From IMG/VR virus record IMGVR_UViG_2585427768_000010: a stretch of DNA of 37,430 bases; one strand, 5' to 3'. Both the position numbers and the translations under genes were made by a program. The notes beneath the pieces are model-generated. The model saw nothing but the letters and a program-made list of their open reading frames with translations, made no database searches and was not told the DNA's origin. Below are positions 14,711-36,730 of this stretch, piece by piece (the stretch's first letter is position 1; each line of letters begins with the position of its first letter). This stretch comes from a virus. Lineage: Duplodnaviria > Heunggongvirae > Uroviricota > Caudoviricetes.

Positions 14711-15763
14711 ATGAATCTGGTGATGTCAGATATTACCCGCAACAAGCTGGGTTGCTATATGGCGAAGCAGGCGTCGCTTAACAATATCCCGGTATCTGCA
14801 CTGGTATCGCGATTTACCGTGGAACCCGCGGTGCAGCAGCGTTTTGAAAACGCCTCAAAGGAAAGTACCGAATTTACGAAAAGAATTAACGTGATCGGCG
14901 TGACCGACCAGAAAGGCGAAAAAATCCTCCTGGACACCACCGGGCCAATTGCGCGCACGAATAGCAGTTATGACGGCATCAAACGCCGTAACCCGAATAA
15001 CGTGATCGATATGAAGTCTCGTCAGTACCAGTGCGAACAGGTGAACTACGATACCTTTATTTCGTACCCACAGCTTGATACCTGGGCGGCCCACAGCGAT
15101 TTTCAGTCCCGTATCAGTACACAGATCGCCCGGCAGGTAGCGCTTGATCGCATCATGATTGGCTTTAACGGCACATCCCACGCCTACGAGTCTGATTTTC
15201 ACACCAACAAGCTGCTTCAGGACGTTAACGTGGGCTGGCTGGAGCACATCAGAACCGATGCCAGCGAGCGCGTAATGAATGACGTGACGCTGACCTCCCG
15301 CAACATGGACAACACTGTGGCGCACGCGGGTAAGTATGCGAATGCCGATGCTCTGGTACAGGATGCGCGCTCATCCCTGCTGGATGAATGGCACAAGGAA
15401 GCTGACGACCTCGTGGTGATTATGGGGCGCAACCTGTTTAACTCGCTGCGTCTGCCCGTGCTGAACAGCATCAGCGGCCAGAATCCCAATGCGGAATTAC
15501 TTGCCGGGCAGCTCATCCTGTCATCGCGCACCATTGGCGGGCTGGGCGTGTTCCTTGCGCCGTTCTTCCCGGATGCAACGATGCTTATCACCTCGTTCAA
15601 CAACCTGTCGATTTACTGGCAGAAAGGTTCAATGCGTCGCCTGATGAAAGACGAGCCGGAATACAACCGCATCGCCACCTACCAGTCCATCAATGACGCT
15701 TATGTCGTTGAAGACTATGGCAAGTGCGCGATGGTCACTGGCCTGAAGTTCGCCGACAGCTAA
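14711..15763 (+). CDS. N: Major capsid protein (P2 gpN-like, 350 aa)
   Basis: Shares P2 gpN blocks FTVEP, GEKI, FNG, LQDVNVGWL, LVVIMGR, FFPDATMLIT, LSIY, YVVEDY. Confidence 0.9.
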   Translation: MNLVMSDITRNKLGCYMAKQASLNNIPVSALVSRFTVEPAVQQRFENASKESTEFTKRINVIGVTDQKGEKILLDTTGPIARTNSSYDGIKRRNPNNVIDMKSRQYQCEQVNYDTFISYPQLDTWAAHSDFQSRISTQIARQVALDRIMIGFNGTSHAYESDFHTNKLLQDVNVGWLEHIRTDASERVMNDVTLTSRNMDNTVAHAGKYANADALVQDARSSLLDEWHKEADDLVVIMGRNLFNSLRLPVLNSISGQNPNAELLAGQLILSSRTIGGLGVFLAPFFPDATMLITSFNNLSIYWQKGSMRRLMKDEPEYNRIATYQSINDAYVVEDYGKCAMVTGLKFADS

Positions 15764-15808: not shown

Positions 15809-16609
15809 ATGATTACTCCTGCACAACAACACTGGCAGAACGTGATGGCACAGCGCGCAGGCCGGGCGAATGAAGGTGTGGACCACGCCGCGTGTACCGC
15901 GCATGAAGAGGTGCTGTATCGTCTGCGTCTGGCACAGGCCAGGCTAAAGGCCATACAGGCCAGAAGCGCGAAAGCCGCCATCAAAAAAGAGTTGTTGCCG
16001 GACTTTTCCGGCTGGATTGAGGGAACGCTGGAGGCTGACGGCGGGCAACAGGACGAAGTAATTGCCACGCTGATGGTGTGGGCGATTGACTGCGGCGATC
16101 TTCCGCTGGCGCTGCGTATTGGTGCATATGTGGTCCGTCACAACCTCATCATGCCGGATAACTTTGGCCGTACTGCTGCCACGGTACTGACCGAAGAAAT
16201 CTGCAACCCGGTACTGACGCAGGCCGGGACGGATGCCGACGCGGATTTATCCGCCTTTATCGAACCACTGGACACACTTTGGGAAATTGTCGCCAACCAG
16301 GACATTCCGGACGAAGTGCGCGCCAAATTATGCAAGGCGTGTGCCTTTGCCCGTCGTGGCCTGACCGATGCAGACAACATGGCCTCATCACTGAAGCTGC
16401 TGCGCGAAGCGATGCACCTGAACCCGAACGCAGGTGTGAAACGCGAGATTGCAACCCTTTCCCGCGCCCTGAAAAAAGCCGATTCCGCAGCCGAACCAGA
16501 AGACGCCAGCGCACAGCAGGCGCAGGACGAAAGCAGCAAAAGTAAAAAGACAACGCGGAAGCCTGCAACACGAAAAACCACCGCGACGCAGAAGGCAAAG
16601 CGCGGTTAA
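15809..16609 (+). CDS. M: Terminase small / endonuclease subunit (P2 gpM-like, 266 aa)
   Basis: Position and size; basic C-terminal tail. Confidence 0.8.
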   Translation: MITPAQQHWQNVMAQRAGRANEGVDHAACTAHEEVLYRLRLAQARLKAIQARSAKAAIKKELLPDFSGWIEGTLEADGGQQDEVIATLMVWAIDCGDLPLALRIGAYVVRHNLIMPDNFGRTAATVLTEEICNPVLTQAGTDADADLSAFIEPLDTLWEIVANQDIPDEVRAKLCKACAFARRGLTDADNMASSLKLLREAMHLNPNAGVKREIATLSRALKKADSAAEPEDASAQQAQDESSKSKKTTRKPATRKTTATQKAKRG

Positions 16610-16710
16610 CGACTGACCCCGTCAGCGGGCGGCGTGCGCGGTGTTCCGGTTTGACTCCGTGACCGTTTACACCGCGCACCCACCGCCCGATTTTTTCAGG
16701 AGTGAACCCC

Positions 16711-17205
16711 ATGAGTATGGTTGCCAGAACTAACCCCGGCCCCGCAGAGGACGACATCACCGATACCGATGATGGCGACACTCGCATTTCAGCGGGTGCA
16801 TTCTGGCCGGATATTGTGCTGCGTGAGCTGCGTCTGGCGGTACGACTGCCGGGCCGCGTGACCACCTCCCGCCTGCTGCATACCGCCACCGGGGCCATAG
16901 CACACGTTACCCGCGAGCTGGAAGCATGGCAGCAGGAACAACAGGCGGCTGGCTATCAGACGCTGGCCGATGTTCCGGCCCCTGTAATTAACGGAGAAAG
17001 CGTCAATCTCTGGCACTGGCGCAATGCTGTTTATACCGCCACACGCGCCCTGATTCTGGAGCGTTACCGCGATGCGGACACAACGGACAAGGGCGACCGC
17101 CGGGCGGACGCACTGGATATACAGACATCGGATTTGTGGCGCGATGTGAGCTGGGCCATCTCTGACATTCTGGGACGACCGCGAATGTTTGCGGAGCTGT
17201 GCTGA
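16711..17205 (+). CDS. L: Head completion/stabilisation protein (P2 gpL-like)
   Basis: AGGAG Shine-Dalgarno before ATG 16711; position after M. Confidence 0.8.
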   Translation: MSMVARTNPGPAEDDITDTDDGDTRISAGAFWPDIVLRELRLAVRLPGRVTTSRLLHTATGAIAHVTRELEAWQQEQQAAGYQTLADVPAPVINGESVNLWHWRNAVYTATRALILERYRDADTTDKGDRRADALDIQTSDLWRDVSWAISDILGRPRMFAELC

Positions 17206-17405
17206 TGAAAGTGAAGGCACTGGAAGGCGACACCGTGGATTCGCTCTGTTTCCGGTACTACGGCACGACACAGGGCGTCACCGAAAAGGTGCTGGATGCC
17301 AACCCCGGACTCTGTCAGCAGGTATTTCTGGACGCCGGGCAGGAAGTGGAGATGCCGGAGCCGGAGAAGAAGAAACGAGAAATGATTCAGTTGTGGGGGG
17401 AGTAG
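17205..17405 (+). CDS. X: Tail protein X (LysM-like, 66 aa)
   Basis: Similar to P2 gpX pattern (L.GDT.D..C.RYYG.T.GV.E.VL.ANPGL); ATG overlaps L stop. Confidence 0.75.
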   Translation: MKVKALEGDTVDSLCFRYYGTTQGVTEKVLDANPGLCQQVFLDAGQEVEMPEPEKKKREMIQLWGE

Positions 17406-17407
17406 CA

Positions 17408-17731
17408 GTGAGCACCATTCAAACAGGGATCACAGAGCAGGTTATTGCGTGGCTCTTTGACCACCTGCCAACGGTGTATGCAGTAGGCGCGGCTGTCAGC
17501 ATTTCCGCGCTGATGAGTCTTTATGACGGACGAACACTGGTTCAGACCGTAACGGGATCGCTGGCGTGCGGCGTTCTTGCCATGGCCGTGGCCGGGTCGC
17601 TGCGCTTCTTCGGGATCCCTGAGGATGCAGTGACGTTTTTTGGTGCCTCAATCGGTTTTATGGGCGCAGAGAAAGCACGCGACAAGGTTATTGCAATATT
17701 TGATCGCAGGGTGAAGGAGAGGAACGAATGA
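17408..17731 (+). CDS. Putative holin (107 aa, GTG start)
   Basis: Three hydrophobic segments; immediately upstream of endolysin. Confidence 0.55.
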   Translation: MSTIQTGITEQVIAWLFDHLPTVYAVGAAVSISALMSLYDGRTLVQTVTGSLACGVLAMAVAGSLRFFGIPEDAVTFFGASIGFMGAEKARDKVIAIFDRRVKERNE

Positions 17732-18120
17732 GCAACACATTTAAATTCAGCAGCCGAAGCGAAAAGAATTTGCAGGGTGTAAATCCTGATCTGGTGAAAG
17801 TGACCCGACGGGCGCTGGAAATCTCGGAAGTGGATTTTGGTATCACCGAAGGATTGCGCAGTCGTTATCGTCAGAAGCAGCTCGTGACCACAGGCAAGAG
17901 CCAGACCATGAACAGTCGCCATCTCACAGGGCATGCCGTGGATGTTGTGGCTTATGTTGGCAGCCAGGTGTCATGGGAATGGCCGCTGTACGAAAAAATC
18001 GCAGCAGCATTCAGACAGGCCAGCCAGGAACTGAATATTCCGGTGGAATGGGGCGGCGACTGGAAGACCCTGAAAGACGGACCGCATTTTCAGTTACCAC
18101 ACGGAGCCTATCCGGCATGA
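17728..18120 (+). CDS. Endolysin, peptidase M15-type (L-alanyl-D-glutamate peptidase-like, 130 aa)
   Basis: Zinc-peptidase M15 pattern (SRHLTGHAVDV, WGGDW, GPHFQL); position between holin and spanins. Confidence 0.75.
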   Translation: MSNTFKFSSRSEKNLQGVNPDLVKVTRRALEISEVDFGITEGLRSRYRQKQLVTTGKSQTMNSRHLTGHAVDVVAYVGSQVSWEWPLYEKIAAAFRQASQELNIPVEWGGDWKTLKDGPHFQLPHGAYPA

Positions 18121-18512
18121 AGCTCTGGCCCACGCTTGGCGTCGCTTTCCTTCTGATTACATCCATGCGTCTGTCGTGGTCGCTGGGCCGGGAGAACGCC
18201 AGAAACGAAGCGCAGGCCAGCACCCTGAAAAGTACCGTCGACACACTGAATATCATCAGCGCCGGGGTACAGGATATGCAGCAGGTGCTGGCTCAGCTCC
18301 GCGCGGAAAATCAGCAACGCAATCAGGACGGAGAGGTAAGACGTGAACAGCTACGCAACGATATTGCAAAAGATGAATGCGCCCACGCTTTGCCTGACGC
18401 TCGTTTTACTGACAGGTTGCGCAGGCACGCAGAACGCGCCAGGGCCAGCGCCGTCAGTCCGGCTTATACCGCAGACGCTGACCATGCCGGTAACGCCTCC
18501 CCCCTTCCCTGA
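18117..18512 (+). CDS. lysB: i-spanin (LysB/Rz-like, 131 aa)
   Basis: N-terminal transmembrane segment MKLWPTLGVAFLLITSM then coiled-coil-like charged region; start overlaps endolysin stop. Confidence 0.6.
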   Translation: MKLWPTLGVAFLLITSMRLSWSLGRENARNEAQASTLKSTVDTLNIISAGVQDMQQVLAQLRAENQQRNQDGEVRREQLRNDIAKDECAHALPDARFTDRLRRHAERARASAVSPAYTADADHAGNASPLP

Positions 18513-18654
18513 CCCACCCACATGGGGAAACCTCGGAATATGGGGCGACCGCCTTCTGGATGCACTGGAAACCTGTAACGCGGATAAACGGGCCATTGCT
18601 GAACTGGATAAGAGAATAGCCGAACTGACACACCAGACGGGAGTAACACAATGA
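18343..18654 (+). CDS. lysC: o-spanin lipoprotein (LysC/Rz1-like, 103 aa, GTG start) overlapping lysB out of frame
   Basis: Lipobox LLTGC after signal sequence; proline-rich; starts inside lysB in a different frame and extends beyond it. Confidence 0.55.
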   Translation: MNSYATILQKMNAPTLCLTLVLLTGCAGTQNAPGPAPSVRLIPQTLTMPVTPPPFPDPPTWGNLGIWGDRLLDALETCNADKRAIAELDKRIAELTHQTGVTQ

Positions 18655-20531
18655 CCAGTAAGAACTTTGCACTGATTACAGCCATGACACAGGCTGAACT
18701 GACTCAAAAGGTGAATGAACATCTTGCGAAAGGGTGGCATCTTCAGGGGGAGACGCGGGTTGCCTACGAACCCGGCACCCCGTGGTATCTAATGCAGGCA
18801 ATGGTGGACGATGGCACTACAGACATCTCACCTGATTCCCCCCAGCACGGCAGCGTGCCGGAGTGGTATTACGTGGTGGTACTTGCTGGTCAATCCAATG
18901 CCATGTCATATGGTGATGGAATGCCGCTGCCGGATTCTTACGATGCGCCCCACCCACGCATTAAGCAACTGGCCCGTCGCAACACAGTGACTCCCGGTGG
19001 TAAAGCATGCGCATTTAACGACATCATTCCGGCAGACCACTGCCTGCATGATGTTCAGGATATGAGCGCACTGAATCATCCGAAGGCAGACCTGAGCAAA
19101 GGGCAGTACGGCTGTGTCGGCCAGGGCTTACATATTGCCAAAAAACTGCTCCCGTATATCCCGAATAACGCGGGGATCCTGCTGGTACCATGCTGTCGTG
19201 GTGGTTCGGCATTCACTCAGGGCGCGGAGGGAACATTCAGTACGACCACGGGGACCAGCCAGGATTCGGCGCGCTGGGGTGTGGGTAAACCGTTATATCA
19301 GGACCTGATTGCGCGCACTAAAGCTGCATTACAGAAGAACCCGAAAAATGTGTTGCTGGCGGTGTGCTGGATGCAGGGCGAATTTGACATGAGCGCTGCC
19401 ACCTACGCACAGCAACCGGACCTGTTCACGGCCATGCTGAAGCAGTTCCGTACTGACCTTTCCGGATTTAACGCGCAGTGCCATGGCGGCAGTGCTGCAG
19501 TTGTACCGTGGATTTGTGGCGACACGACGTATTACTGGAAAAACACATACGGCACACAGTATGACTCCGTCTACGGCGCGTACAAAAACAGGGAGAGCGA
19601 CAACGTTTTCTTTGTGCCGTTCATGACCGACGGTAACGGCAACAACACGCCCACCAACTTACCGGCAGAAGACCCGGATATTGCTGATGCAGGTTATTAC
19701 GGCGCGCAATCCCGTAGTAATGGTAATTGGGTATCGTCAAATCGTCCGACACATTTCAGTTCATGGGCGCGCAGGGGCATTATTTCGGATCGCCTGGCAA
19801 CCGCTATTCTGAACGCAGTTGGTCGAACCAGCGCCTTCATCAGCGGTACCGCACCGGAGATTAAACCCTCGCCCGGCGGCGACACTCCATCGGGGCCGTC
19901 TGATGGTGACACATCCGTTCGTACAGTCTCCCTGCTGCCGACAGCCGGAGAGGCTGCTGCGCAGGGCTGGACCATCACCGGCGGCAGTGTTGCGCTGGAA
20001 GATGGTGTGTTTAAGGTTACCAAGCAGAGCAATAAAACCTGGTCCCTGATGCATCCGGTGGATGACGCAGTCTCCCTGCTGACACGGGGTGGCAGACTGA
20101 GCTGTAAGTTTCGACTGTCAGGCGCACTGACCAACAACCAGTTCGGTCTGGGAATTTATCTGTATACCGATGTAGCGTTACCTGACGTCGTGGCGATGAC
20201 CGGGACTGGTAACCCGTTCCTGATGTCGTTCTTCACCCAGACCACAGACGGCAAACTGAATCTGATGCATCACAAGAAAGCCGGAAACACAAAGTTGGGC
20301 GAGTTCGGGAATTACAGTAACGACTGGCAGACGCTGGAGCTGGTGTTCACCGCCGGCAGTGCCACGGTTACTCCGAAACTGAATGGAGTGGCTGGCCCGG
20401 CATTCCAGGTCATAAAAGACAGTCTGACACTGGGGCTGAATGCGCTGACGTTAACTGATATCACTAAAAATGCCGCGTACGGCGTCGATATCGGCAGCCT
20501 GGTGCTGGAAATCAATAATCCCGCAGCATAA
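18651..20531 (+). CDS. NanS-p-like SGNH esterase (putative sialate O-acetylesterase; DUF1737 N-domain plus esterase plus C-terminal domain, 626 aa)
   Basis: N-terminal DUF1737-like segment (AMTQAELTQKVNEHLAKGWHLQGE); SGNH block I VVLAGQSNAMSYG; ATGA overlap with lysC stop; no counterpart at this position in P2. Confidence 0.65.
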   Translation: MTSKNFALITAMTQAELTQKVNEHLAKGWHLQGETRVAYEPGTPWYLMQAMVDDGTTDISPDSPQHGSVPEWYYVVVLAGQSNAMSYGDGMPLPDSYDAPHPRIKQLARRNTVTPGGKACAFNDIIPADHCLHDVQDMSALNHPKADLSKGQYGCVGQGLHIAKKLLPYIPNNAGILLVPCCRGGSAFTQGAEGTFSTTTGTSQDSARWGVGKPLYQDLIARTKAALQKNPKNVLLAVCWMQGEFDMSAATYAQQPDLFTAMLKQFRTDLSGFNAQCHGGSAAVVPWICGDTTYYWKNTYGTQYDSVYGAYKNRESDNVFFVPFMTDGNGNNTPTNLPAEDPDIADAGYYGAQSRSNGNWVSSNRPTHFSSWARRGIISDRLATAILNAVGRTSAFISGTAPEIKPSPGGDTPSGPSDGDTSVRTVSLLPTAGEAAAQGWTITGGSVALEDGVFKVTKQSNKTWSLMHPVDDAVSLLTRGGRLSCKFRLSGALTNNQFGLGIYLYTDVALPDVVAMTGTGNPFLMSFFTQTTDGKLNLMHHKKAGNTKLGEFGNYSNDWQTLELVFTAGSATVTPKLNGVAGPAFQVIKDSLTLGLNALTLTDITKNAAYGVDIGSLVLEINNPAA

Positions 20532-20554
20532 GGAAGAGCAGGAGAGCAAAACAG

Positions 20555-21022
20555 ATGCTTAAGACAAACAGTCTGCGAGAGTCCATGCTTCATGGGTGTC
20601 GGTGGTGCCAGGCTAATCCCGAGAAATTCACCATTTTCGTGGAGAGCGGCAACATTGAAACGACCGGAGAAGCGCCCTCGTTTGTTTACCGCTATCAGAT
20701 GGTGATGTTTGTCATGGATTACGCCGGAGAGCTGGACGACCTCACGCTGCCGCTGCTGGCGTGGTTATCCGAAAATCAGCCACAGTTGTTGCTCAATCCG
20801 GAGCGTAATCAGGACATCAAATTTTCTGCCGTTATCAATGACGATGACAGCGCCGATCTCCTGTTTACGCTCCCCCTGCGGGAACGCGTTCGCATCACGC
20901 GCAACAGTCAGGGCACACCGCAGGCAGAACACCTGCCGGAGCCAAAACCCCGTCTGCCCTCTTCCGAAGGCGACTGGTCGCATGTATTCCAGGATGTGAC
21001 GTGGGGTGAAAGCGATGGATAA
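20555..21022 (+). CDS. R: Tail completion protein R (155 aa)
   Basis: Size identical to P2 gpR and position before S. Confidence 0.8.
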   Translation: MLKTNSLRESMLHGCRWCQANPEKFTIFVESGNIETTGEAPSFVYRYQMVMFVMDYAGELDDLTLPLLAWLSENQPQLLLNPERNQDIKFSAVINDDDSADLLFTLPLRERVRITRNSQGTPQAEHLPEPKPRLPSSEGDWSHVFQDVTWGESDG

Positions 21023-21650
21023 GGCATTCACCAGCGTGGATGAAACCTTTGAGGCTATCCGCGACAGCCTGAATCAGCAGGCCATCAATAACATCGCCAG
21101 AAAGCTGGCACAGGATTTACGTCGCGCCCAGCAGGCACGTATCCGATCACAAAAAGCGCCGGACGGGACCGAATGGACACCACGCAGACGCCGCGTAACC
21201 CGGATACAGGAGCGCATTCGCTTTATCTGGAATAACGAAGCACGCACGCTGAAAAACTGGCATCACGACACGGGGAAATACGGGCGAACCATTACCGGGT
21301 GGGATGAGGATAAAAACAATATCCGCACGTTTTACCGGGATGACATCGACCGTTTTCTGGAAATACGCACCCGGCGCATCAACCAGGACAGCACAAAGCG
21401 CGTCCCCATGTTCGTAAAACTGCGCACCGCCCGCTACCTGAAAGCCCGTGCAGATGCCTCCGGTGTGACGGTGGGTTACAGCGGCGTGGCCGCACGTATT
21501 GCACGCGTTCATCAGTTCGGTGAGCGCGATCAGGTTGCGCCGGGCATTTTCACCGATTACCCGGTACGTGAGCTGTTGGGTATCAGCCAGGCAGATGAGC
21601 GCCTGATTTATAACACGGTGCTGGGCCGGATTGCGGAGGCTGTACGGTGA
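21015..21650 (+). CDS. S: Tail completion protein S
   Basis: Position; start uncertain (GTG 21006 or ATG 21015). Confidence 0.75.
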   Translation: MDKAFTSVDETFEAIRDSLNQQAINNIARKLAQDLRRAQQARIRSQKAPDGTEWTPRRRRVTRIQERIRFIWNNEARTLKNWHHDTGKYGRTITGWDEDKNNIRTFYRDDIDRFLEIRTRRINQDSTKRVPMFVKLRTARYLKARADASGVTVGYSGVAARIARVHQFGERDQVAPGIFTDYPVRELLGISQADERLIYNTVLGRIAEAVR

Positions 21651-22228
21651 GCGCAGAACTCATGCGACTGCTGAGCAACATCATCCGCACCGGGATCATC
21701 TCTGAAGTTGATGAGAAGTCCTGGCGCGTGCGCGTTCGCAGCGGCGAACTGGAAACAGGCTGGTTGCGCTGGAACACCACGCGCGCGGGAGCCTTCAATG
21801 TGTGGCTGCCGCCATCACCAGGCGAACAGGTGGTAATTGCCTGCATTGGCGGCAACCCGGAAACCGCCATGATAATTGGCAGCCTGTGGAGTGATGCCAG
21901 TCCGGCCCCCGGCAAAAGCCTGAAAGAAATCGTGGTCAGCGCGCCGGATGGCGCGGTGTTCCGCTACGACGCAGACGCTGGCGCACTGAGCGCCAGCGGC
22001 ATGAAAACAGCCACCCTGCAGGCATCCGTCAGCGTGACACTGGATACGCCCGTCGTGGAATGCACAAACCTTCTGAGAACAGCGACGCTTGACGTCACAA
22101 AAGGGGGAAAGATGTGCGGCAATATCACGCACAGCGGCGGCAACTTCACCTCAAACGGCATCACAGTGCATACGCATAAACACGGTGGTGTGAAAGGCGG
22201 CAGCGATTCGACAGGAGGCCCGCAGTGA
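21647..22228 (+). CDS. V: Baseplate spike protein V (193 aa)
   Basis: Position; C-terminal HTHKHGG apex motif typical of gpV spikes; start GTG 21647 or ATG 21662. Confidence 0.8.
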   Translation: MSAELMRLLSNIIRTGIISEVDEKSWRVRVRSGELETGWLRWNTTRAGAFNVWLPPSPGEQVVIACIGGNPETAMIIGSLWSDASPAPGKSLKEIVVSAPDGAVFRYDADAGALSASGMKTATLQASVSVTLDTPVVECTNLLRTATLDVTKGGKMCGNITHSGGNFTSNGITVHTHKHGGVKGGSDSTGGPQ

Positions 22229-22575
22229 CAACCCGCTACACAGGAATGAATCCGGACGGGACGGGAAACCTGAATGATATGGAGCACCTGAAACAGTCAG
22301 CCAGGGACATCCTGACCACCCCGCTGGCCAGCCGGGTTATGCGACGGGAATATGGCAGCCTTGTACCTGATTTGATTGACGAACCCATGAATAACACCAC
22401 GCGTCTGCAATGCATGAGTGCTGCCGTGATTGCGCTGACACGATGGGAACCCCGCATTGCCCTGGACGCCATCGACGTTGTCTGGAAAGCGGGAGGCCGC
22501 GCCGGGGTGACGCTGTCGGGCACTGTCATGCAGACCATGCAGAATGTTGAGTTAACCATCACGCTGAGGGAGTAA
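22225..22575 (+). CDS. W: Baseplate protein W (116 aa)
   Basis: Size and position. Confidence 0.8.
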   Translation: MTTRYTGMNPDGTGNLNDMEHLKQSARDILTTPLASRVMRREYGSLVPDLIDEPMNNTTRLQCMSAAVIALTRWEPRIALDAIDVVWKAGGRAGVTLSGTVMQTMQNVELTITLRE

Positions 22576-23475: not shown

Positions 23476-24076
23476 TTCGTTGTTACCACCATCAGCCAGC
23501 AATTTCATGCGTTGTGCCGAAGCCGTCGGAACACGCATTACAGACATTCCGGTAGACCTCAACACGCTGTGGTCGCCGGACACCTGCCCGGTGCATCTGC
23601 TGCCTTATCTCGCCTGGGCGTTTTCCGTTGACCGCTGGGATCGCAACTGGCCGGAAGAGACAAAGCGACAGGTGATTCGTGATGCATGGCTGATACACCG
23701 ACACAAAGGGACCATCAGCGCACTGCGAAGAGCCGTGGAGCCTCTCGGCTACCTGATTGAAGTAAAGGAGTGGTGGCAACTCAACGAGGAGCCGGGAACA
23801 TTTCGCATTGTTGTCGGAGTACTTGATCAGGGCATCACCGATGAAATGTATCAGGAACTTGAGCGCCTTATTGCGGATGCAAAACCAGTAAGTCGCCATC
23901 TGACGGGGCTGGCGATCAGCCTGAGTGTGAACGGAAAGATTTTCGTTGGTACGGGATGCTATCACGGCGATGCCCTGACGGTTTATCCCTACACCCCGGA
24001 GTCCATTATTGTCGAAGGGGATTATTTCCCTGCCCCGGCCATTCATTTAATTGATAATCTGAGAGTAAACGCATGA
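23468..24076 (+). CDS. I: Baseplate/tail protein I (202 aa from ATG 23468)
   Basis: Position; ATG overlaps J stop. Confidence 0.8.
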   Translation: MSNSLLPPSASNFMRCAEAVGTRITDIPVDLNTLWSPDTCPVHLLPYLAWAFSVDRWDRNWPEETKRQVIRDAWLIHRHKGTISALRRAVEPLGYLIEVKEWWQLNEEPGTFRIVVGVLDQGITDEMYQELERLIADAKPVSRHLTGLAISLSVNGKIFVGTGCYHGDALTVYPYTPESIIVEGDYFPAPAIHLIDNLRVNA

Positions 24077-25668
24077 CAGTGAAATACTACGCCATTCTGA
24101 CTAATCAGGGCGCGGCACGACTGGCTAACGCGACGATGCTCGGCAGTAAGCTGAATCTGACGCGAATGGCCGTTGGTGATGCAAATGGTGTGTTACCAAC
24201 ACCAGACCCTGCACAAACAAAACTGATTAACCAGAAACGCATTGCACCGCTGAATCTTCTGAGTGTTGACCCTAACAATCAGAGCCAGATTATTGCGGAG
24301 CAAATCATCCCTGAAAGCGAGGGTGGATTCTGGATCCGTGAGATTGGTCTTTATGATGATAAAGGTGTACTCATTGCGGTGGCAAACTGCCCGGAAACGT
24401 ACAAACCGCAGTTGCAGGAAGGCAGTGGACGCACCCAGACTATCCGCATGATTCTGGTTGTCACGAACACCGAAGCCATCACGCTGAAAATCGACCCGTC
24501 TGTGGTTCTGGCAACCCGCAAATATGTGGATGATAAAATCTCAAAGCACGAGCAGTCACGACGTCACCCGGACGCCTCGCTGACCGCAAAAGGCTTTGTT
24601 CAACTTAGCAGTGCCACGGACAGTCAATCAGAAACTGAGGCTGCCACGCCGAAGGCTGTGAAAATCGCGTATGATCTGGCCTGGGGAAAATACACAGCCC
24701 AGGATGCAACAACGACCCGTAAAGGGATCGTACAACTGAGCAGTGCCACCAACAGCACCTCTGAAACGCTGGCCGCCACACCAAAAGCCGTCAAGGCGGC
24801 ATACGACCTTGCAGCCGGCAAGGCCCCCGTCAGCCACACTCACCCATGGAGTCAGATAACGGGAGTGCCTGCTGCCTCGCTGACGGCAAAAGGCACCGTA
24901 CAACTGAGCAGTGCCATCAACAGCACGTCTGAAATACTGGCCGCCACACCGAAAGCGGTCAAGGATGCATACGATCTGGCAAACGGAAAACAACCGGCAG
25001 ATGCCACGCTCACTGCTCTGGCAGGACTTGCCACTGCAGCAGATCGGTTGCCTTATTTTACCGGAGCAGACCGCGCAGCGCTGGCAACCCTTACAGCTAT
25101 TGGTCGCGCTATTATCGCTAAGGGCAGTATAAAAGATGTCCTCAATTACCTTGGTTTGGGGGAAGGCTCTGCATTGCCTGTTGGTGTACCGGTTCCGTGG
25201 CCCACCGCCACACCGCCAGAAGGCTGGTTAAAGTGCGACGGGCGCGCCTTTACAAAAGAACAATATCCTGTTCTGGCCAGAGCCTACCCGACCCTCCGTC
25301 TTCCCGATTTACGCGGTGAGTTTATCCGTGGATGGGACGACGGGCGCAAAGTTGATACAGGACGTAAGTTGCTGTCCGCACAAGGGGCAACGCTGTTAAG
25401 AACAGCAATGCTGGATTATTATAACCAGGACACTACGGGAACCTCGGGGATAGTCGGCATGGGATTCAACAATGAAGATTCCATTACAGACCTTCGTGAG
25501 GGCAGCTTTAAAATGCCGGACGGGACAACATTCAGCGATCCTGTCGTGGCAATGTCAGACAATGGTATGCAGGCTACTATTCTGACCTCTATCAGAAGCG
25601 GGTATGCGAAGGGTATCACTGTCAGACCCCGTAGCATTGCACTTAATTACATTGTGAGGGCAGTTTAA
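24073..25668 (+). CDS. H: Tail fibre protein H (531 aa) with constant N-terminal 360 aa and variable C-terminal receptor-binding region
   Basis: Strong match to P2 gpH (AVGD, GGFW.RE.GLYDD.G.LIAVAN, SKHEQSRRHPDASLTAKGFVQLSSAT, DATLTALAGLATAADR, PYFTG); three internal LTAKG..QLSSA repeats. Confidence 0.9.
   Translation: MTVKYYAILTNQGAARLANATMLGSKLNLTRMAVGDANGVLPTPDPAQTKLINQKRIAPLNLLSVDPNNQSQIIAEQIIPESEGGFWIREIGLYDDKGVLIAVANCPETYKPQLQEGSGRTQTIRMILVVTNTEAITLKIDPSVVLATRKYVDDKISKHEQSRRHPDASLTAKGFVQLSSATDSQSETEAATPKAVKIAYDLAWGKYTAQDATTTRKGIVQLSSATNSTSETLAATPKAVKAAYDLAAGKAPVSHTHPWSQITGVPAASLTAKGTVQLSSAINSTSEILAATPKAVKDAYDLANGKQPADATLTALAGLATAADRLPYFTGADRAALATLTAIGRAIIAKGSIKDVLNYLGLGEGSALPVGVPVPWPTATPPEGWLKCDGRAFTKEQYPVLARAYPTLRLPDLRGEFIRGWDDGRKVDTGRKLLSAQGATLLRTAMLDYYNQDTTGTSGIVGMGFNNEDSITDLREGSFKMPDGTTFSDPVVAMSDNGMQATILTSIRSGYAKGITVRPRSIALNYIVRAV
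25139..25164. other. Invertase crossover site A (hix/gix-like, 26 bp), inside H
   Basis: Reverse complement reads TTCCCCCAAACC-AA-GGTAATTGAGGA; compare hixL TTCTTGAAAACC-AA-GGTTTTTGATAA. Confidence 0.5.
25151..25330 (+). repeat. Tail-fibre recombination repeat, copy A (direct orientation)
   Basis: About 170 bp nearly identical to inverted copies ending at 26767 and 27239. Confidence 0.8.
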
Positions 25669-26282
25669 TGAGTAACACTGCAGTTCTGGATGAAAACGGT
25701 ATCGCCACTGTAGCGGGCGATATCACTGTATATCACTATGACGAGGAAACCCGGGAATACACCTCATCCTCTGTGGAGTATCTCGCCCTTGGGGTGGGTA
25801 CTCCGGCACATTCGTGCGCCGATGCACCGCCGGAGGCAATTTCGGGTTACGTGGTTTGCCGGACTGCCACGCTGAACGGGTGGGAGCATGTGCCTGATCA
25901 CCGCGGCGAGACGGTATACAGCACGGAGAACGGTAACCCTGTTCTGATTACCCAACCGGGTGATTACCCGGCGGACACCACCACAAAACAGCCAGCCACG
26001 CCATGGGATACCTGGAACGGTGAGGCGTGGGTAACCGATACTGAACGGCAGCGAGCCGCAGAACTGGAGGTTGCCAGACAGCAACGCCAGCAACGGGTGA
26101 AACAGGCGATGGCGTCCGTCGATCTTATCAACCTCAAACTGCGTGCTGGTCGCAGTCTGACACCAGAAGAAACGGCAAAACTGAACGCCGTGCTGGATTA
26201 TATCGACGAGCTGAACGCACTGGATATCAGCACGGCACCTGAAATCAGCTGGCCGGAAGCGCCACTGGCACTTGCCAGTTGA
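25668..26282 (+). CDS. G: Tail fibre assembly chaperone G (204 aa)
   Basis: Position after H with 1-nt overlap; typical tail-fibre-assembly C-terminus. Confidence 0.8.
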   Translation: MSNTAVLDENGIATVAGDITVYHYDEETREYTSSSVEYLALGVGTPAHSCADAPPEAISGYVVCRTATLNGWEHVPDHRGETVYSTENGNPVLITQPGDYPADTTTKQPATPWDTWNGEAWVTDTERQRAAELEVARQQRQQRVKQAMASVDLINLKLRAGRSLTPEETAKLNAVLDYIDELNALDISTAPEISWPEAPLALAS

Positions 26283-26288
26283 ACGGTA

Positions 26289-26753
26289 TCACGCCGCCCT
26301 CACGATATAGTTAAACGCGATATTGCGGGGGCGGGTTATGTTAAAGAATGCTCCGTTTAATTCGGCTTTTGCGCGACTGTTTGTTCCACCCAGTATTGCG
26401 TACCACAAATAATCGCTACGGTAATTCCCCGCAAACACCTTATCGCCGCCATAGTCAATATTATTTCCGTTACTCATGTACGAGATATCAAGCGCAGAAT
26501 CGTTATCGTCATGACCGCCGACCAGTGTACCTTTCTGCCATGAAAGCAACTTACGCCCCTCGTCAATCTTGCGCCCGTCGTCCCATCCACGGATAAACTC
26601 ACCGCGTAAATCGGGAAGACGGAGGGTCGGGTAGACTCTGGCCAGAACAGGATATTGTTCTTTGGTGAACGTAGCTCCGTTGCACTGTAACCAGCCTGCT
26701 GGCGGTGTGGCGGTGGGCCATGGAACCGGTACACCAACAGGCAATGCAGAGCC
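26289..26753 (-). CDS. Alternative tail-fibre C-terminal cassette 2 (promoterless, about 155 aa; expressed only after inversion)
   Basis: Begins inside inverted repeat copy B in frame with the H constant region (LGEGSALPVGVPVPWPTATPP); ends RPRNIAFNYIVRAA like H. Confidence 0.65.
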   Translation of the reverse strand, partial: GSALPVGVPVPWPTATPPAGWLQCNGATFTKEQYPVLARVYPTLRLPDLRGEFIRGWDDGRKIDEGRKLLSWQKGTLVGGHDDNDSALDISYMSNGNNIDYGGDKVFAGNYRSDYLWYAILGGTNSRAKAELNGAFFNITRPRNIAFNYIVRAA

Positions 26754-26767
26754 TTCCCCCAAACCAA
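26580..26767 (-). repeat. Tail-fibre recombination repeat, copy B (inverted)
   Basis: Reverse complement matches 25151-25330 with a diverged central patch. Confidence 0.8.
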
Positions 26768-26779
26768 CGTTTTTATGCC
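26754..26779. other. Invertase crossover site B
   Basis: TTCCCCCAAACC-AA-CGTTTTTATGCC. Confidence 0.5.
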
Positions 26780-27225
26780 GCCCTTACGATATAATTAAAG
26801 GCAATATTACGAGGACGGTTTTCATTAGCTGTTGGCACGACACGAGAGGCGTCGAATCCAAGGTCATCGGTTTTGTCTATAGTAGTTGTGTTATTCGGCA
26901 TTCTCGCTGATCGTGTTCCTGCATCGTAAAAAGCCCCTCTGATTGCATCAAAAGACATACCGATCCCGCCATCTGCGAATCCCTCAATATTTCTTATTGC
27001 ATCCCCCTGTGAAGATAATAATTGTCGCCCGGCATCCACACCACGTCCGTCATCCCAGCCACGAATAAATTCACCGCGTAAATCGGGAAGACGGAGGGTC
27101 GGGTAGGCTCTGGCCAGAACAGGATATTGTTCTTTTGTAAAGGCGCGCCCGTCGCACTTTAACCAGCCTTCTGGCGGTGTGGCGGTGGGCCACGGAACCG
27201 GTACACCAACAGGCAATGCAGAGCC
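26773..27225 (-). CDS. Alternative tail-fibre C-terminal cassette 3 (promoterless, about 150 aa)
   Basis: Begins inside inverted repeat copy C in frame; different variable region; ends RPRNIAFNYIVRAA. Confidence 0.65.
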   Translation of the reverse strand, partial: GSALPVGVPVPWPTATPPEGWLKCDGRAFTKEQYPVLARAYPTLRLPDLRGEFIRGWDDGRGVDAGRQLLSSQGDAIRNIEGFADGGIGMSFDAIRGAFYDAGTRSARMPNNTTTIDKTDDLGFDASRVVPTANENRPRNIAFNYIVRAA

Positions 27226-27239
27226 TTCCCCCAAACCAA
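27060..27239 (-). repeat. Tail-fibre recombination repeat, copy C (inverted)
   Basis: Reverse complement nearly identical to 25151-25319. Confidence 0.8.
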
Positions 27240-27251
27240 CGTTTTCGTTTT
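27226..27251. other. Invertase crossover site C
   Basis: TTCCCCCAAACC-AA-CGTTTTCGTTTT, close to hix core AAACCAAGGTTTT. Confidence 0.5.
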
Positions 27252-27305
27252 TATCCCTACCTATACCAACTCTGTATTTTTCACGAAACAAAGAGGATGT
27301 TTTTT

Positions 27306-27905
27306 ATGCAAATTGGCTATATTCGTGTGTCAACAAACGACCAGAACACGGATTTACAACGCAATGCACTGAACTGCGCAGGATGTGAACTGATTTTTGA
27401 AGATAAAATCAGCGGAACGAAATCAACCAGACCGGGATTGAAAAAACTGCTCAGAACGCTATCAGAAGGAGATACGCTGGTTGTCTGGAAGCTGGACAGA
27501 CTGGGCAGAAGTATGAAACACCTGATCACGCTTATTGAGGAATTGCGGGAAAAAGGTGTTAATTTCCGTAGTCTGACGGACAGCATTGACACGTCAACAC
27601 CCATGGGGCGTTTCTTTTTTCACGTCATGGGGGCTTTAGCCGAAATGGAACGTGAATTAATTGTAGAGCGTACACTGGCCGGGCTGGCAGCAGCACGCGC
27701 ACAAGGACGCATTGGCGGACGTCGCCCGAAGTTGACAAAAGAACAACACGAGCAAATAGCGAGGCTGATTAAAAACGGTCATGACAGGAAACAACTGGCG
27801 ATCATTTACGACATCGGCATATCGACGATTTATCGTTATCACCCTGTAGGCGATATACAGGCTGAAGAAACAACCAGACAGACTCAGGAAAATGAAAACC
27901 GCTAA
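27306..27905 (+). CDS. Serine DNA invertase, Hin/Gin/Cin/Pin family (199 aa)
   Basis: N-terminal resolvase catalytic domain (IGYIRVSTNDQ with catalytic Ser, VWKLDRLGRS) and C-terminal HTH (ISTIYRY); AGAGGA Shine-Dalgarno before ATG 27306. Confidence 0.9.
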   Translation: MQIGYIRVSTNDQNTDLQRNALNCAGCELIFEDKISGTKSTRPGLKKLLRTLSEGDTLVVWKLDRLGRSMKHLITLIEELREKGVNFRSLTDSIDTSTPMGRFFFHVMGALAEMERELIVERTLAGLAAARAQGRIGGRRPKLTKEQHEQIARLIKNGHDRKQLAIIYDIGISTIYRYHPVGDIQAEETTRQTQENENR

Positions 27906-35419: not shown

Positions 35420-35506
35420 GGAAACCGCGACGGGGGAGCAATCCCCCGTCAATCGGTTGCTAAGGTTGGCTGAAGTGGCACCCTATCTCACAGACATGAA
35501 CAACAA

Positions 35507-35539
35507 ACCCGCAGCGTAAGAACTGCGGGTTTTCTTTTT
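35507..35539 (+). terminator. Rho-independent terminator downstream of hok-like gene
   Basis: ACCCGCAG-cgtaagaa-CTGCGGGT followed by TTTCTTTTT. Confidence 0.55.
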
Positions 35540-35607
35540 GGAACTATCACTAGCTAGTGTACCGTTAACGGCACATAATGCTCGCACAACAAACCTGTTA
35601 AAAGAGA

Positions 35608-35889
35608 TTACTCAGCATTCTCCTGCTTCCATTGCCGGATCATTTCATCGGTAACATCACCCTCATAACATACCACGTCATACCCTCCATTACGGCTATA
35701 TGCACTGCGTCCACCACATCTACTACCATTCCTTGCATGATTATAAGGACACGCACAATTGCCTGGATAAGATTCAATGGATTCTTTAATTATTTCTTTT
35801 TTGATCTGAGCATCAGACTTTCCTGTTGCTGCATATCCGCTAAAAGATACTAAACAAAGGCAGATTGCCATTAATAAACCACATCGCAT
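35608..35889 (-). CDS. Small secreted cysteine-rich hypothetical protein (about 93 aa from internal Met)
   Basis: Signal-peptide-like MRCGLLMAICLCLVSFSGYAA; the longer 131-aa track ORF has no RBS; start uncertain. Confidence 0.4.
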   Translation of the reverse strand: MRCGLLMAICLCLVSFSGYAATGKSDAQIKKEIIKESIESYPGNCACPYNHARNGSRCGGRSAYSRNGGYDVVCYEGDVTDEMIRQWKQENAE

Positions 35890-36514: not shown

Positions 36515-36526
36515 TCGGGAAGAAAG

Positions 36527-36654: not shown

Positions 36655-36730
<76 letters not shown>

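Follow-up and report, generated by a model that had tools for sequence, protein, structure and literature searches.

A predicted NanS-p-type esterase gene in the lysC-gpR slot of a P2-family prophage is a chimera of a lambdoid-type enzyme body and a P2-type N-terminus

Introduction

A role in the feeding of pathogenic E. coli on the O-acetylated sialic acids of gut mucus is ascribed to the NanS-p esterases, and work on these enzymes has so far dealt almost exclusively with lambdoid Stx phages. The window analysed here, a stretch of 37,430 nucleotides (IMG/VR virus record IMGVR_UViG_2585427768_000010), is a P2-family prophage with a P88-like Peduoviridae backbone (Xuanwuvirus), and an original prediction made from the sequence had placed a NanS-p-like esterase gene directly behind its lysis genes. 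This raises the question of how such a gene in a P2-type backbone is related to its lambdoid counterparts, and what its product may do for the phage or its host.

Results

Genomic context and expression of the esterase gene

The predicted open reading frame of 626 codons was recovered exactly (Table 1), with its ATG overlapping the lysC stop codon as ATGA and a GGGAG sequence 8 nt upstream, in agreement with the proposed translational coupling to lysC. The location after the lysis genes of a P2-family prophage was borne out by the Pfam assignments of the neighbours, which are Phage_holin_3_1, an M15 endolysin, lysB/DUF2570 and LysC on the 5' side, and P2 gpR and gpS on the 3' side; a sequence identical to this lysC is annotated as lysC by PGAP in L030. 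The esterase stop codon is separated by 23 nt from the start of gpR, which has its own AGGAG sequence. The major capsid protein gpN of the window is 99.4% identical (tblastn) to the annotated P2-family capsid protein of an O104:H4 prophage, and matches the solved gpN structure 7JW1 with an E-value of 4e-82.

Table 1. Coordinates of the esterase gene, its parts and the associated phage features in the 37,430 nt window.
Feature	Position	Strand	Basis
Major capsid protein gpN, P2-family, 350 aa	14711..15763	+	tblastn, 14711-15760
lysC (Rz1-like o-spanin)	18394..18654	+	Pfam LysC, E 1.6e-13
Carrier-specific segment replacing 93 bp of the empty site	18599..20596	+	blastn vs P88 and phage 520873
nanS-p-type esterase gene	18651..20531	+	626 codons plus TAA; Pfam, PHROG, phmmer
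DUF1737 domain, P2-type class (aa 1-54)	18651..18812	+	Pfam, AlphaFold
Linker 1 (aa 55-68, G-T-T-D-I-S-P-D-S-P-Q-H-G-S)	18813..18854	+	predicted disordered
SGNH type II esterase core (aa 69-390), homologous to NanS/YjhS	18855..19820	+	phmmer, Pfam SASA
DNA common to lambdoid nanS-p genes (esterase, linker 2, lectin-like domain)	18857..20531	+	blastn
Codons of Gln81 (oxyanion hole) and Ser82 (nucleophile), GQSN block aa 80-83	18891..18896	+	NanS alignment
Codon of His368 (catalytic base), block RPTH	19752..19754	+	NanS alignment
Linker 2 (aa 391-430, Ser/Pro/Gly-rich)	19821..19940	+	predicted disordered
C-terminal DUF6645 lectin-like beta-sandwich (aa 431-626)	19941..20528	+	Pfam PF20350, 6YP6, model
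gpR tail completion gene	20555..21022	+	Pfam P2_Phage_GpR, E 1.4e-38

Scanning for transcription signals of the gene itself gave two promoter-like sites versus 3.4 expected, both weak (9/12), in a consensus scan which an atypical promoter could escape, while no terminator-like site was present before gpR and there was no excess of such sites nearby. A scan for the Ogr/Delta activator site (TGT-N12-ACA) was uninformative: six matches were found where 8.3 would be expected, and the known late-promoter region had none. Because the gene is without its own promoter and terminator and is coupled to lysC, we infer from the gene layout that it is expressed in the late lytic phase together with the head, lysis and tail-completion genes, as its position among late genes had suggested, and not constitutively in the lysogen. 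The same features, combined with a GC fraction of 0.55-0.56 within the gene versus 0.53-0.58 in the flanks and hence no compositional anomaly, led us to reject its designation as a moron in the sense of an autonomous transcription unit. The moron-like trait that was seen is presence/absence polymorphism: the gene is carried by 376 (approximately 36%) of the 1,039 genomes with a P88-type lysC.

Domain architecture and active site

The encoded protein has three Pfam domains exceeding the gathering score, DUF1737 (PF08410, aa 4-53, E 4e-7), SASA (aa 75-271, E 6e-13) and DUF6645 (PF20350, aa 477-587, E 2e-19), and a match to PHROG 143 spans its full length. Together with the matches to the structures 3PT5 and 6YP6, these confirm the anticipated NanS-p-type architecture, with its DUF1737-like N-terminus and an SGNH esterase core containing the GQSN block. 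The protein is thus a predicted NanS-p-family sialate 9-O-acetylesterase consisting of three modules on flexible tethers. In the AlphaFold model (pLDDT above 90 for aa 11-50), the DUF1737 domain is formed by strand beta1 (aa 5-11), helix alpha1 (aa 14-26) and strands beta2 (aa 30-40) and beta3 (aa 43-53); residues G28, W29, G33 and Q49 are invariant in this domain, and the part most specific to the P2-type class is the hairpin A-Y-E-P-G-T-P-W-Y-L-M-Q at aa 38-49. Both linkers have pLDDT values below 50 (aa 55-67 and aa 394-422, respectively), and linker 1 occupies the position of the SISSP cleavage region in phi24B gp84.

The esterase core aligns over aa 69-388 with NanS (3PT5; phmmer E 6.8e-123), and in this alignment Gln81 and Ser82 correspond to NanS Gln18 and Ser19, and His368 to His301. 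Residues G80, Q81, S82, N83 and H368 are invariant in an alignment of 51 homologues, and the RPTH block was also read in prophage 86. The catalytic residues expected from NanS are therefore conserved, but the Ser-His-Asp triad which the original prediction had put forward does not apply: NanS catalysis uses a Ser19-His301 dyad without a catalytic Asp, and hence a triad is the wrong criterion for this family. Homology points to a NanS-type active site made up of Ser82, His368 and an oxyanion hole of Gln81 and a glycine, again with no catalytic Asp.

The C-terminal domain had been considered to be of unknown function, but it matches the solved lectin-like C-terminal domain of NanS-p (6YP6, E 3.8e-30), and the structure prediction that had been proposed returned a beta-sandwich over aa 424-621 with a pLDDT of about 90. 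By homology this module would be the NanS-p lectin-like jelly-roll, which is thought to keep the enzyme bound on glycans; aromatic residues are kept at three of the four positions of the proposed sugar site (F498, Y503 and F528), while the fourth is L594. The window protein is identical at 622 of 626 positions to WP_000202135.1 of E. coli O104:H4 C227-11, which has five esterase-homologous loci and for which five NanS-p enzymes have been reported as active (PMC8065619), this allele possibly among them. Activity on Neu5,9Ac2, pNP-acetate or mucin would accordingly be expected of the window protein as well.

A lambdoid-type enzyme body on a P2-type N-terminus

Using blastn, the DNA from nt 18857 to the end of the gene was found to be 86.3% identical to Stx1a phage 132418 and 94.5% identical to a lambda-head prophage (L027), with the match starting exactly at 18857 in both of these and in the hybrid contig L115, and with no DNA similarity to lambdoid nanS-p 5' of this nucleotide. 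At the protein level, identity to the Stx1a phage NanS-p is 33% for DUF1737, 88% for the esterase and 84% for the C-terminal domain. The closest relatives of the esterase and C-terminal domains are lambdoid (96% and 97%, respectively), whereas the N-terminus is at most 36% identical to that of any non-P2 type, and its DUF1737 module is 22-36% identical to lambdoid DUF1737 domains. These comparisons show the gene to be a chimera at the sequence level, with a body of lambdoid origin and a P2-type N-terminal module. Likewise, P0047 is 95% (esterase) and 87% (C-terminal domain) identical to lambdoid proteins, the C-terminal domain of P0094 is 94% identical, and a Mu-like prophage has the same esterase body on an N-terminus other than DUF1737, for which Pfam and PHROG searches were uninformative. 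Comparison of these alleles shows that lambdoid and P2-type phages have traded their esterase bodies more than once, each backbone keeping its own N-terminus.

An apparent counter-example, the lambdoid N-terminus adjoining gpR in L115, was discarded, because neither lysC nor gpN is present in the left half of this contig, which is lambdoid. L115 would be a recombinant or else an assembly chimera, with its joint exactly at the position equivalent to 18857.

The carrier-specific segment and its distribution

When the region was compared by blastn with P88 and phage 520873, matches covered only positions 16500-18598 and 20597-22500, leaving 1,998 bp in the window versus 93 bp in P88-like phages without the esterase gene, which include P88 and other close relatives. 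The segment also comprises the last 56 nt of lysC (18599-18654), which are specific to esterase-carrying phages, and the first 42 nt of gpR. The lysC-esterase-gpR arrangement is present in 376 of 5,426 complete E. coli genomes, O104:H4 outbreak strains included, and at least five further P2-type protein lineages use the same slot with a different endolysin, so that the earlier view of this gene as unusual in a P2-like phage was overstated. It is also carried by the induced and sequenced phages vB_EcoM-705R2 and vB_EcoM-569R5, and the btuC-ihfA prophage of O104:H4 C227-11 is a further carrier. About four of the 26 assessable viral-contig copies are truncated, and hence the gene is dispensable; phage 2B8 has a split copy.

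N-terminal class and capsid type

The class of the N-terminus was compared with the capsid of the phage carrying it. All six protein lineages with the P2-type N-terminus are encoded between lysB/lysC and gpR in prophages with a PF05125 capsid, and of 34 IMG/VR contigs with this N-terminus, 33 encode a P2-type gpN, with lambdoid capsid genes absent from all 34. Conversely, the lambdoid-type N-terminus was not accompanied by gpN or lysC at any of 80 loci. A tblastn search of the phage collection with the N-domain gave matches in P88-like records only, N-domain identity tracks gpN identity, and different DUF1737 variants are found with Sepvirinae and with HK97-type heads. Two aspects of this domain had been missed in the original prediction, namely that it is a P2-lineage-specific module, and that DUF1737 has recently been shown to bind the phi24B capsid.

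Within the lambdoid phages, 1717 and P13374 are 97% identical in the esterase and 98% in the C-terminus, with 69% in DUF1737, whereas Stx1a_132418 and 1717, which have a common head, are 94% identical in DUF1737, 71% in the esterase and 37% in the C-terminus. Among the lambdoid phages compared, the sequence of DUF1737 thus appears to follow the head type rather than the enzyme lineage. The mapping of variants to capsids is not one-to-one, since the 'TPYTLMQ' variant accompanies capsid proteins of at least two families unrelated to each other (an HK97-type fusion and lambda gpE). We also considered co-adaptation of gpN with the esterase, as 27 carriers and four non-carriers are fully separated at twelve gpN positions. 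Distant carriers have only some of these differences, P2 gpN itself also has D at position 162, and the fixed differences look like a linked recombination block; because linkage explains them, they were rejected as evidence of co-adaptation.

In a word-indexed homologue search, the 69-aa N-terminus matched nothing but fragments of its own allele, the ten matches of an exhaustive HMMER search with the N-domain were frameshifted fragments and stand-alone DUF1737 proteins of 54-74 aa, and no relative was confirmed in species-representative genomes scanned with the P2-type N-domain alignment. Foldseek with the N-domain model against a PDB set without the phi24B capsid entries (9XL*) gave small dodecin-like beta-alpha-beta-beta folds, with a best E-value of 0.08.

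Discussion

A model for the P2-type esterase

In phage phi24B, DUF1737 has been identified by cryo-EM and proteomics as a capsid-binding domain, hexamers of gp84 bind via a Tyr42 'tooth', and decoration is limited to the flat face-centre hexons of the T=9 capsid (bioRxiv 10.64898/2026.04.10.717836). Since phi24B DUF1737 binds the capsid, display of the window protein on the P2-type head can be envisaged. The modelled N-domain, which consists of a helix and three antiparallel strands and leads into a disordered tether, has the topology of the phi24B gp84 N-domain, although neither the phi24B anchor hairpin T-A-G-Y-G-A-E-F with Tyr42 (A-Y-E-P-G-T-P-W-Y-L-M-Q in the window) nor the SISSP processing motif (D-I-S-P-D-S-P) is conserved. 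By this analogy gpN is the proposed partner, and the DUF1737 module might dock the enzyme, probably as a ring, onto the gpN hexamers of the T=7 head, a proposal we hold tentatively and at somewhat less than even odds. The broader version of this idea, to which we give slightly less credence still, is that the N-terminal module of NanS-p could be an interchangeable virion-docking adaptor, with each backbone having its own while the payload is traded, and the P2-type one docking on gpN hexamers. On this adaptor reading, which we regard with the same reserve, heads of the P2 type, of the Sepvirinae type and of lambdoid siphoviruses would each have their own DUF1737 class, and Mu-like phages a non-DUF1737 module.

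Taken as a whole, the best explanation for the locus, with a probability of roughly 0.6, is that it encodes a late-made chimeric sialate 9-O-acetylesterase which, by analogy, would dock on the head and would de-O-acetylate sialic acids around lysing cells. The esterase would be made with the other late genes in lytic growth and set free at cell lysis. Docked virions would combine esterase activity with lectin binding and could de-O-acetylate the sialoglycans of intestinal mucus, and the linkers may be cleaved later, releasing the enzyme. Docked or not, it would strip Neu5,9Ac2 and the mucin glycans near lysing cells of their 9-O-acetyl groups, and surviving lysogens could then use the sialic acid, a benefit which has been shown experimentally for other NanS-p alleles.

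The main competitor, which we consider quite possible while keeping it below an even chance, is that the esterase is a soluble 'public good' only, and that DUF1737 has no capsid role in P2-type phages but perhaps functions in folding, in oligomerisation or in something else. In its favour, EHEC can grow on Neu5,9Ac2 by means of NanS-p alleles, whose products also de-acetylate the glycans of mucin (PMC8065619; PMC10462455), and the T=7 P2 capsid is without face-centred hexons of the kind used in phi24B, with no decoration of the P2 head itself having been reported. The backbone specificity of the N-terminus would here be a by-product of recombination: if the diverged 5' end cannot recombine, every gene conversion between co-resident paralogues would begin within the conserved 'PEWYYVVVLAGQSN' stretch, and crossovers in the conserved 5' part of the esterase, as in L115, could be enough to leave the N-terminus with its backbone. 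The identical start of the lambdoid match at 18857 in three independent comparisons is in line with this, as are the occurrence of one DUF1737 variant with two capsid families and the explanation of the gpN differences by linkage. A purely soluble enzyme leaves unexplained, however, why a folded 54-aa domain with four invariant residues has been kept in every lineage, why its divergence parallels that of the capsid, and why the Mu-like phage has swapped the domain for a different module rather than losing it, and the sole experimental datum on DUF1737 is its binding to the phi24B capsid.

That the enzyme is virion-borne and aids adsorption by de-O-acetylating a glycan of the bacterial surface (the O-antigen, or a capsule made of sialic acid or otherwise acidic), comparable to the tailspike deacetylases of other phages, seems improbable to us, even though this role has been raised for NanS-p in a review of Stx phages (PMC8065619). 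The core is 88-97% identical to enzymes acting on free and mucin-bound Neu5,9Ac2, the same body is found on podo-, sipho- and myoviruses with quite different receptors and tails, and a capsid location is poorly placed for processing a receptor at the tail tip. In related P88-like prophages, an acetyltransferase moron close to the tail-fibre genes would provide the acetylated surface, but functional pairing with such an enzyme was rejected for the window, where this gene is absent and an invertible fibre segment is present instead. Most improbable of all is a neutral passenger decaying in a defective prophage; the truncated copies and the split copy in 2B8 would fit such decay, but the reading frame is intact in the window, the catalytic residues are all invariant across the 51 homologues, and the arrangement has been kept in the 376 genomes and in six diverged protein lineages, as well as in the two induced phages. 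The late-made chimeric esterase with a possible docking module hence remains our preferred reading.

While this kind of enzyme is well known, the chimera with a P2-specific N-terminus is new. P2-type prophages commonly have this enzyme body among their late genes, as seen in about 7% of complete E. coli genomes, with the 2011 O104:H4 outbreak strain and ST131-associated phages among the carriers, and protein identities of up to 96-97% between backbones indicate recent exchange across phage families, in which only the small N-terminal domain stays with the backbone. When nanS-p copies are counted in EHEC and EAEC, P2-type alleles should be included, which PCR primers on the lambdoid DUF1737-SASA junction would probably miss, as there is no blastn similarity upstream of nt 18857. 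The use of DUF1737 as a marker of phi24B-like particle architecture is also called into question. Combined with the 2026 phi24B capsid result, our findings provide a concrete and testable 'plug-and-display' model for enzymes on phage heads; if docking on gpN is true, the protein would be the first enzyme to decorate the head of a P2-family phage, and DUF1737 binding would be independent of the flat face-centred hexons of T=9 capsids.

Comparison with known systems

The lambdoid NanS-p proteins (L0105/z1466 of 933W, vb_24B_21/gp84 of phi24B and 'yjhS' of Stx1a phages) have the same DUF1737-SASA-DUF6645 architecture and the same catalytic residues as the window protein, and some alleles are 88-96% identical to it in the esterase and 84-97% in the C-terminal domain. 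Their genes are likewise late genes adjoining the lysis cassette, but are located between Q/stx and holin S in lambdoid backbones, whereas the window gene follows the lysis genes in the lysC-gpR slot of a P2-type myovirus with a gpN capsid, and is translationally coupled to lysC, unlike lambdoid nanS-p. The absence of the Q/stx-holin context concerns the usual genomic surroundings and is not a property of the protein, in which the differences include the separate class of the DUF1737 module, a beta2-beta3 hairpin longer by four residues (A-Y-E-P-G-T-P-W-Y) and the Leu at one of the four proposed aromatic positions of the sugar site.

The core is homologous to the SGNH type II core of E. coli NanS (YjhS, 3PT5), with the Ser-His dyad and the oxyanion Gln common to both, but NanS lacks both DUF1737 and a lectin-like C-terminal domain, and its gene belongs to the nan regulon of the host, not to the late genes of a phage. 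Psu, encoded by the satellite P4, decorates gpN capsids, and gpN hexamers can thus accept an accessory decoration protein; Psu resembles the window protein in neither sequence nor fold and lacks an enzyme domain. The capsid decoration protein phi24B gp84 belongs to the same family and has the same predicted N-domain topology and Ser/Pro-rich disordered tether, although phi24B is a T=9 podovirus on whose virions gp84 has been seen, while the window protein has a different hairpin and would, if displayed, be carried on a P2-type T=7 head.

An esterase gene embedded in a P2-family late operon

The open reading frame originally predicted between lysC and gpR was recovered at its exact coordinates, together with its coupling to lysC, its domain order and its neighbours. 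Its ATG overlaps the lysC TGA (ACAATGACC) with a GGGAG 8 nt upstream, Pfam detects DUF1737, SASA and DUF6645 (see table), and PHROG 143 spans the protein end to end. The genes upstream (gpL, gpX, holin, M15 endolysin, lysB/DUF2570 and lysC) and downstream (gpR, which starts 23 nt past the esterase TAA and has its own AGGAG, gpS and gpV) form one P2-family late block. Around the gene, the DNA shows 95-97% identity with Escherichia phage P88 and further phages of Xuanwuvirus (Peduoviridae), which lack the gene and match the window in two pieces; the match to P88 and phage 520873 stops at 18598 and restarts at 20597, with 1,998 bp in the window standing in place of 93 bp, and the replaced segment takes in the final 56 nt of lysC and the initial 42 nt of gpR. 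The label "moron" given to this gene was not borne out, as a consensus scan found two promoter-like sites, both weak, where 3.4 were expected, and nothing resembling a terminator in the gap from the esterase gene to gpR, and the GC content of the gene (0.55-0.56) is the same as that of its flanks. From the scan and the layout of the segment replacement, the gene is embedded in the late operon rather than being an autonomous moron cassette, and there is a good chance that the protein is expressed from this operon. Approximately 4 of 26 assessable viral-contig copies are truncated, showing that the gene can be dispensed with.

The arrangement had been called unusual in a P2-like phage, which holds for P2 and P88 but is wrong for the group as a whole. 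When 5,426 complete E. coli genomes were searched with a junction query (18500-18860, lysC 3' end plus DUF1737), the lysC part matched 1,039 genomes, 376 of which (36%) run on into the DUF1737-esterase gene; a 2.6-kb query across the whole arrangement found 373 genomes. Among the carriers are the O104:H4 outbreak strains C227-11, HUSEC2011 and 2011C-3493; their prophage is of the same type, is flanked by btuC and ihfA and encodes a protein (WP_000202135.1) identical to the window protein at 622 of 626 residues. The phage collection contains three further carriers (vB_EcoM-705R2, vB_EcoM-569R5 and an ST131-associated P88-like phage). No link of nanS-p or DUF1737 to P2-like phages was found in the literature searched, and the gene is unmentioned in a global survey of P2-like viruses.

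Coordinates of features in the window and in comparison loci
Feature	Location	Strand	Remark
nanS-p-type ORF	18651-20531	+	626 codons
DUF1737	aa 4-53		Pfam E 4e-7
SASA	aa 75-271		Pfam E 6e-13
DUF6645	aa 477-587		Pfam E 2e-19
gpN	14711-15763		carrier/non-carrier differences at aa 40, 85, 90, 99, 101, 103, 105, 124, 129, 159, 162, 164
Tail-fibre gene	24073-25668		window
Fibre-assembly gene	25668-26282		window
Alternative fibre C-terminal segments	26289-26762 and 26773-27291	-	downstream of fibre-assembly gene
Gin/Cin-type serine invertase	27177-27905	+	after alternative fibre segments
Low-GC stretch	35501-36500		GC 0.40-0.43
tRNA cluster	36428-36730	-	right end of window
DUF1378 genes	L019 12036-12200; L023 12105-12257; L028 8046-8213; L029 8073-8240		after esterase
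Acetyltransferase gene	L003 28456-29028, L030 26783-27328	-	related prophages
ParM-type and ParR-type genes	L003 10082-11360, L030 8132-9407		related prophages
Split nanS-p	L006 3001-4978		phage Lambda_2B8
Mu-like prophage esterase	L024 7638-9686		682 aa
Hybrid contig	L115 10001-16937		IMGVR_UViG_2585427772_000005

Other features of the prophage

The motif GEGSALPVGVPVPWPTATPP occurs in both alternative fibre segments and in the C-terminus of the expressed fibre, and with the invertase gene that follows, the region 26289-27905 resembles the invertible segments by which Mu and P1 switch host range, here in a P2-type phage. Related P88-like prophages of O104:H4 C227-11 (L003) and a Tanzanian ESBL isolate (L030) have a hexapeptide-type 'serine O-acetyltransferase' moron replacing the invertible segment; the presence of acetyltransferase and O-acetylesterase in one phage is suggestive, but the window itself has no acetyltransferase. 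The same two prophages contain plasmid segregation genes of the ParM and ParR types, annotated after the replication endonuclease gene. Such genes are not usual in a P2-type phage that integrates. At the right end of the window, a low-GC stretch precedes a tRNA-Leu(TAA), tRNA-Cys(GCA) and tRNA-Gly(GCC) cluster, which is probably host flank and marks an integration site unlike those of near-identical prophages, by serS (L030) and btuC-ihfA (L003). At the left end, positions 1001-2500 have a GC content of 0.35-0.43 versus 0.52-0.61 in the prophage body, and may be cargo or flanking DNA.

The enzyme belongs with NanS-p

Two structures align with the protein: E. coli NanS/YjhS over residues 69-388 (3PT5, E 6.8e-123), and the crystallised NanS-p C-terminal domain over residues 431-623 (6YP6, E 3.8e-30). 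The second provides a solved homologue for a domain first described as of unknown function. The Ser-His-Asp triad proposed as catalytic check is the wrong criterion, since NanS works by a Ser19-His301 dyad with an oxyanion hole of Gln18 and a glycine, without the catalytic Asp found in classical SGNH enzymes (PMC9063846). The window protein has the equivalents of Gln18, Ser19 and His301, namely Q81, S82 and H368, and none of them varies across an alignment of 51 sequences. Its His block is RPTH, a sequence also described in prophage 86, and three of the four sugar-site aromatics proposed for the phi24B C-terminal domain are still aromatic (F498, Y503, F528), the fourth being Leu (L594). The NanS-p enzymes of EDL933 and O104:H4 are active and support growth on Neu5,9Ac2 (PMC8065619; PMC10462455). 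Five loci of strain C227-11 are homologous to the esterase core, the window allele being one of them; this agrees in number with the five O104:H4 enzymes reported active, and the window allele itself is likely to be among the enzymes assayed. Judged by these alignments, the window protein is very probably a NanS-p-family enzyme.

A lambdoid enzyme body behind a P2-type N-terminus

The DNA match to lambdoid nanS-p begins abruptly at 18857 and extends to the stop codon, with 86% identity to Stx1a phage 132418 and 94.5% to a prophage having a lambda-type head. Compared with the Stx1a allele, 282/321 residues of the esterase (88%) and 165/196 of the C-terminal domain (84%) are identical, versus 17/51 (33%) of DUF1737, and in tblastn searches of the phage collection the first 69 residues matched only the three P88-like records and none of the approximately 350 enzyme-carrying lambdoid phages. 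Among approximately 90 full-length homologues, the hairpin (Y/S)-E-P-G-x-P-(W/F)-Y-L-M-Q is shared by a P2-type class made up of the window protein, P0011/12/14, P0047, P0080, P0094, P0065 and P0069; the remaining N-termini fall into a large 'TPYTLMQ' class, the phi24B class ('AGYGAEF'), several minor ones, and a 120-aa non-DUF1737 N-terminus. N-domains are 45-62% identical within the P2-type class versus 35-45% to any other class, whereas the closest esterase and C-terminal relatives of P2-type proteins are lambdoid (window protein 96% and 97%, P0047 95% and 87%, P0094 C-terminus 94%), with only 66-79% (esterase) and 35-65% (C-terminus) identity among the P2-type proteins themselves. These opposing affinities indicate that lambdoid and P2-type phages have traded the enzyme body on several occasions, with the N-terminus left in place. 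Four of the five other P2-type lineages have a small DUF1378 gene separating the esterase from gpR. Lambdoid Stx phages, P13374 for example, also have it after nanS-p, which speaks for a larger transferred block; the window has no DUF1378 gene. In the lambda-type phage Lambda_2B8, nanS-p is split in two ORFs, both annotated 'Mobile element protein', and represents a disrupted copy and a misannotation.

The prediction that other P2-type N-termini sit in P2-type phages held in all five look-ups: P0080, P0047, P0094, P0065 and P0069 are all encoded between lysB/lysC and gpR in prophages with a GPO scaffold and PF05125 capsid, which are non-P88 lineages given their lysozyme-type endolysin. All 34 IMG/VR contigs encoding the P2-type N-domain class (51-100% identity) have lysC and the fused esterase, none has a lambdoid capsid gene, and P2-type gpN is upstream in 33, the remaining contig being too short to tell. 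On these contigs, gpN identity of at least 98% accompanies N-domain identity of 93-100%, and 61-71% accompanies 51-65%; within the P88-like group, a single N-terminus is combined with esterases varying 88-100% and C-termini varying 71-100%. Neither gpN nor lysC is present in any of the best 80 loci with a lambdoid-type N-domain, where the capsid is an HK97-fusion, lambda gpE or ClpP-fusion protein.

By sequence identity, the domains assort independently among lambdoid phages too. When phages 1717 and PV02105, whose heads have an HK97-type protease-capsid fusion, are compared with P13374 and phi315, which have Sepvirinae podovirus heads, identity is 96-97% in the esterase and 97-100% in the C-terminus but drops to 63-69% in DUF1737. 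Stx1a_132418 and 1717, with the same head (capsid 96% identical), share 94% of DUF1737, 71% of the esterase and 37% of the C-terminus. PhiR12_3 (Sepvirinae head) has the Sepvirinae loop although its enzyme is divergent. A Mu-like prophage (Logan SRR5787742 contig; gp45-48 baseplate genes, Gin-like resolvase and Mom) encodes an esterase with SASA and DUF6645 behind 120 N-terminal residues that form no DUF1737 domain and match nothing in Pfam; DUF1378 and DUF826 genes follow 3', as in Stx phages, the group lying beside gin and mom, and its protein cluster has 535 member sequences.

Does the N-terminus dock on the capsid?

In phi24B, the NanS-p homologue gp84 is a structural protein by proteomics and cryo-EM, its DUF1737 hexamers use a hairpin 'tooth' (Tyr42) to plug the central pore of face-centred hexons in a T=9 capsid, and the enzyme part is cut off near an SISSP motif (bioRxiv 10.64898/2026.04.10.717836). 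The AlphaFold model of the window N-domain (pLDDT >90 over aa 11-50) has the same topology as the phi24B domain, one helix and three antiparallel strands, and is followed by a predicted disordered tether (aa 54-68, D-I-S-P-D-S-P); the full-length model has three folded units with low-confidence linkers at aa 55-67 and 394-422. The anchor-equivalent hairpin, four residues longer than in phi24B, is the region differing most between N-terminus classes and is strongly conserved inside the P2-type class. An N-terminus acting as virion-docking adaptor would yield backbone-specific N-termini on interchangeable enzyme bodies, as seen. The protein would be produced late and may dock on gpN hexamers, with the esterase and lectin domains then displayed or released in mucus.

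By analogy with phi24B, we give capsid docking of the window protein a probability of about 0.4. Counting against it, P2-type capsids are T=7 and lack face-centred hexons, no decoration is reported on the head of P2, which itself lacks the gene, phi24B Tyr42 and its loop are not conserved, and the 'TPYTLMQ' variant occurs as intact genes on phages of two unrelated capsid families. The N-terminus may also stay with its backbone simply because homologous crossovers begin in the conserved 5' esterase end. A hybrid contig (L115) switches from lambdoid to P88-like exactly at the equivalent of 18857. Its left half has lambdoid late genes upstream of nanS-p and a lambdoid-type DUF1737, and the remainder follows the window sequence across gpR, S, V, W and J (megablast 96.3% over approximately 6.5 kb, blastn 93.4% over the first 3.6 kb); the contig is either a real recombinant of two co-resident prophages via shared esterase sequence or an assembly mis-join. 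Capsid co-adaptation was also considered for gpN, where 12 positions differ completely between 27 esterase carriers and 4 esterase-free P88-like phages, a small sample with four non-carriers. This was rejected: distant carriers and P2 gpN break the pattern, which makes linkage the simpler reading, and the difference is probably a linked recombination block.

The phi24B preprint explicitly stops short of a distribution analysis and treats DUF1737 as diagnostic of phi24B-like particles (bioRxiv 10.64898/2026.04.10.717836), and the latter is contradicted by the present data. In sequence and predicted structure the window protein has all the characteristics of the NanS-p family, and the enzymology expected of it is ordinary; what deserves pursuit is its modular N-terminus. 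Compared with lambdoid NanS-p, the window protein departs only in its P2-type genomic context and its N-terminal class.
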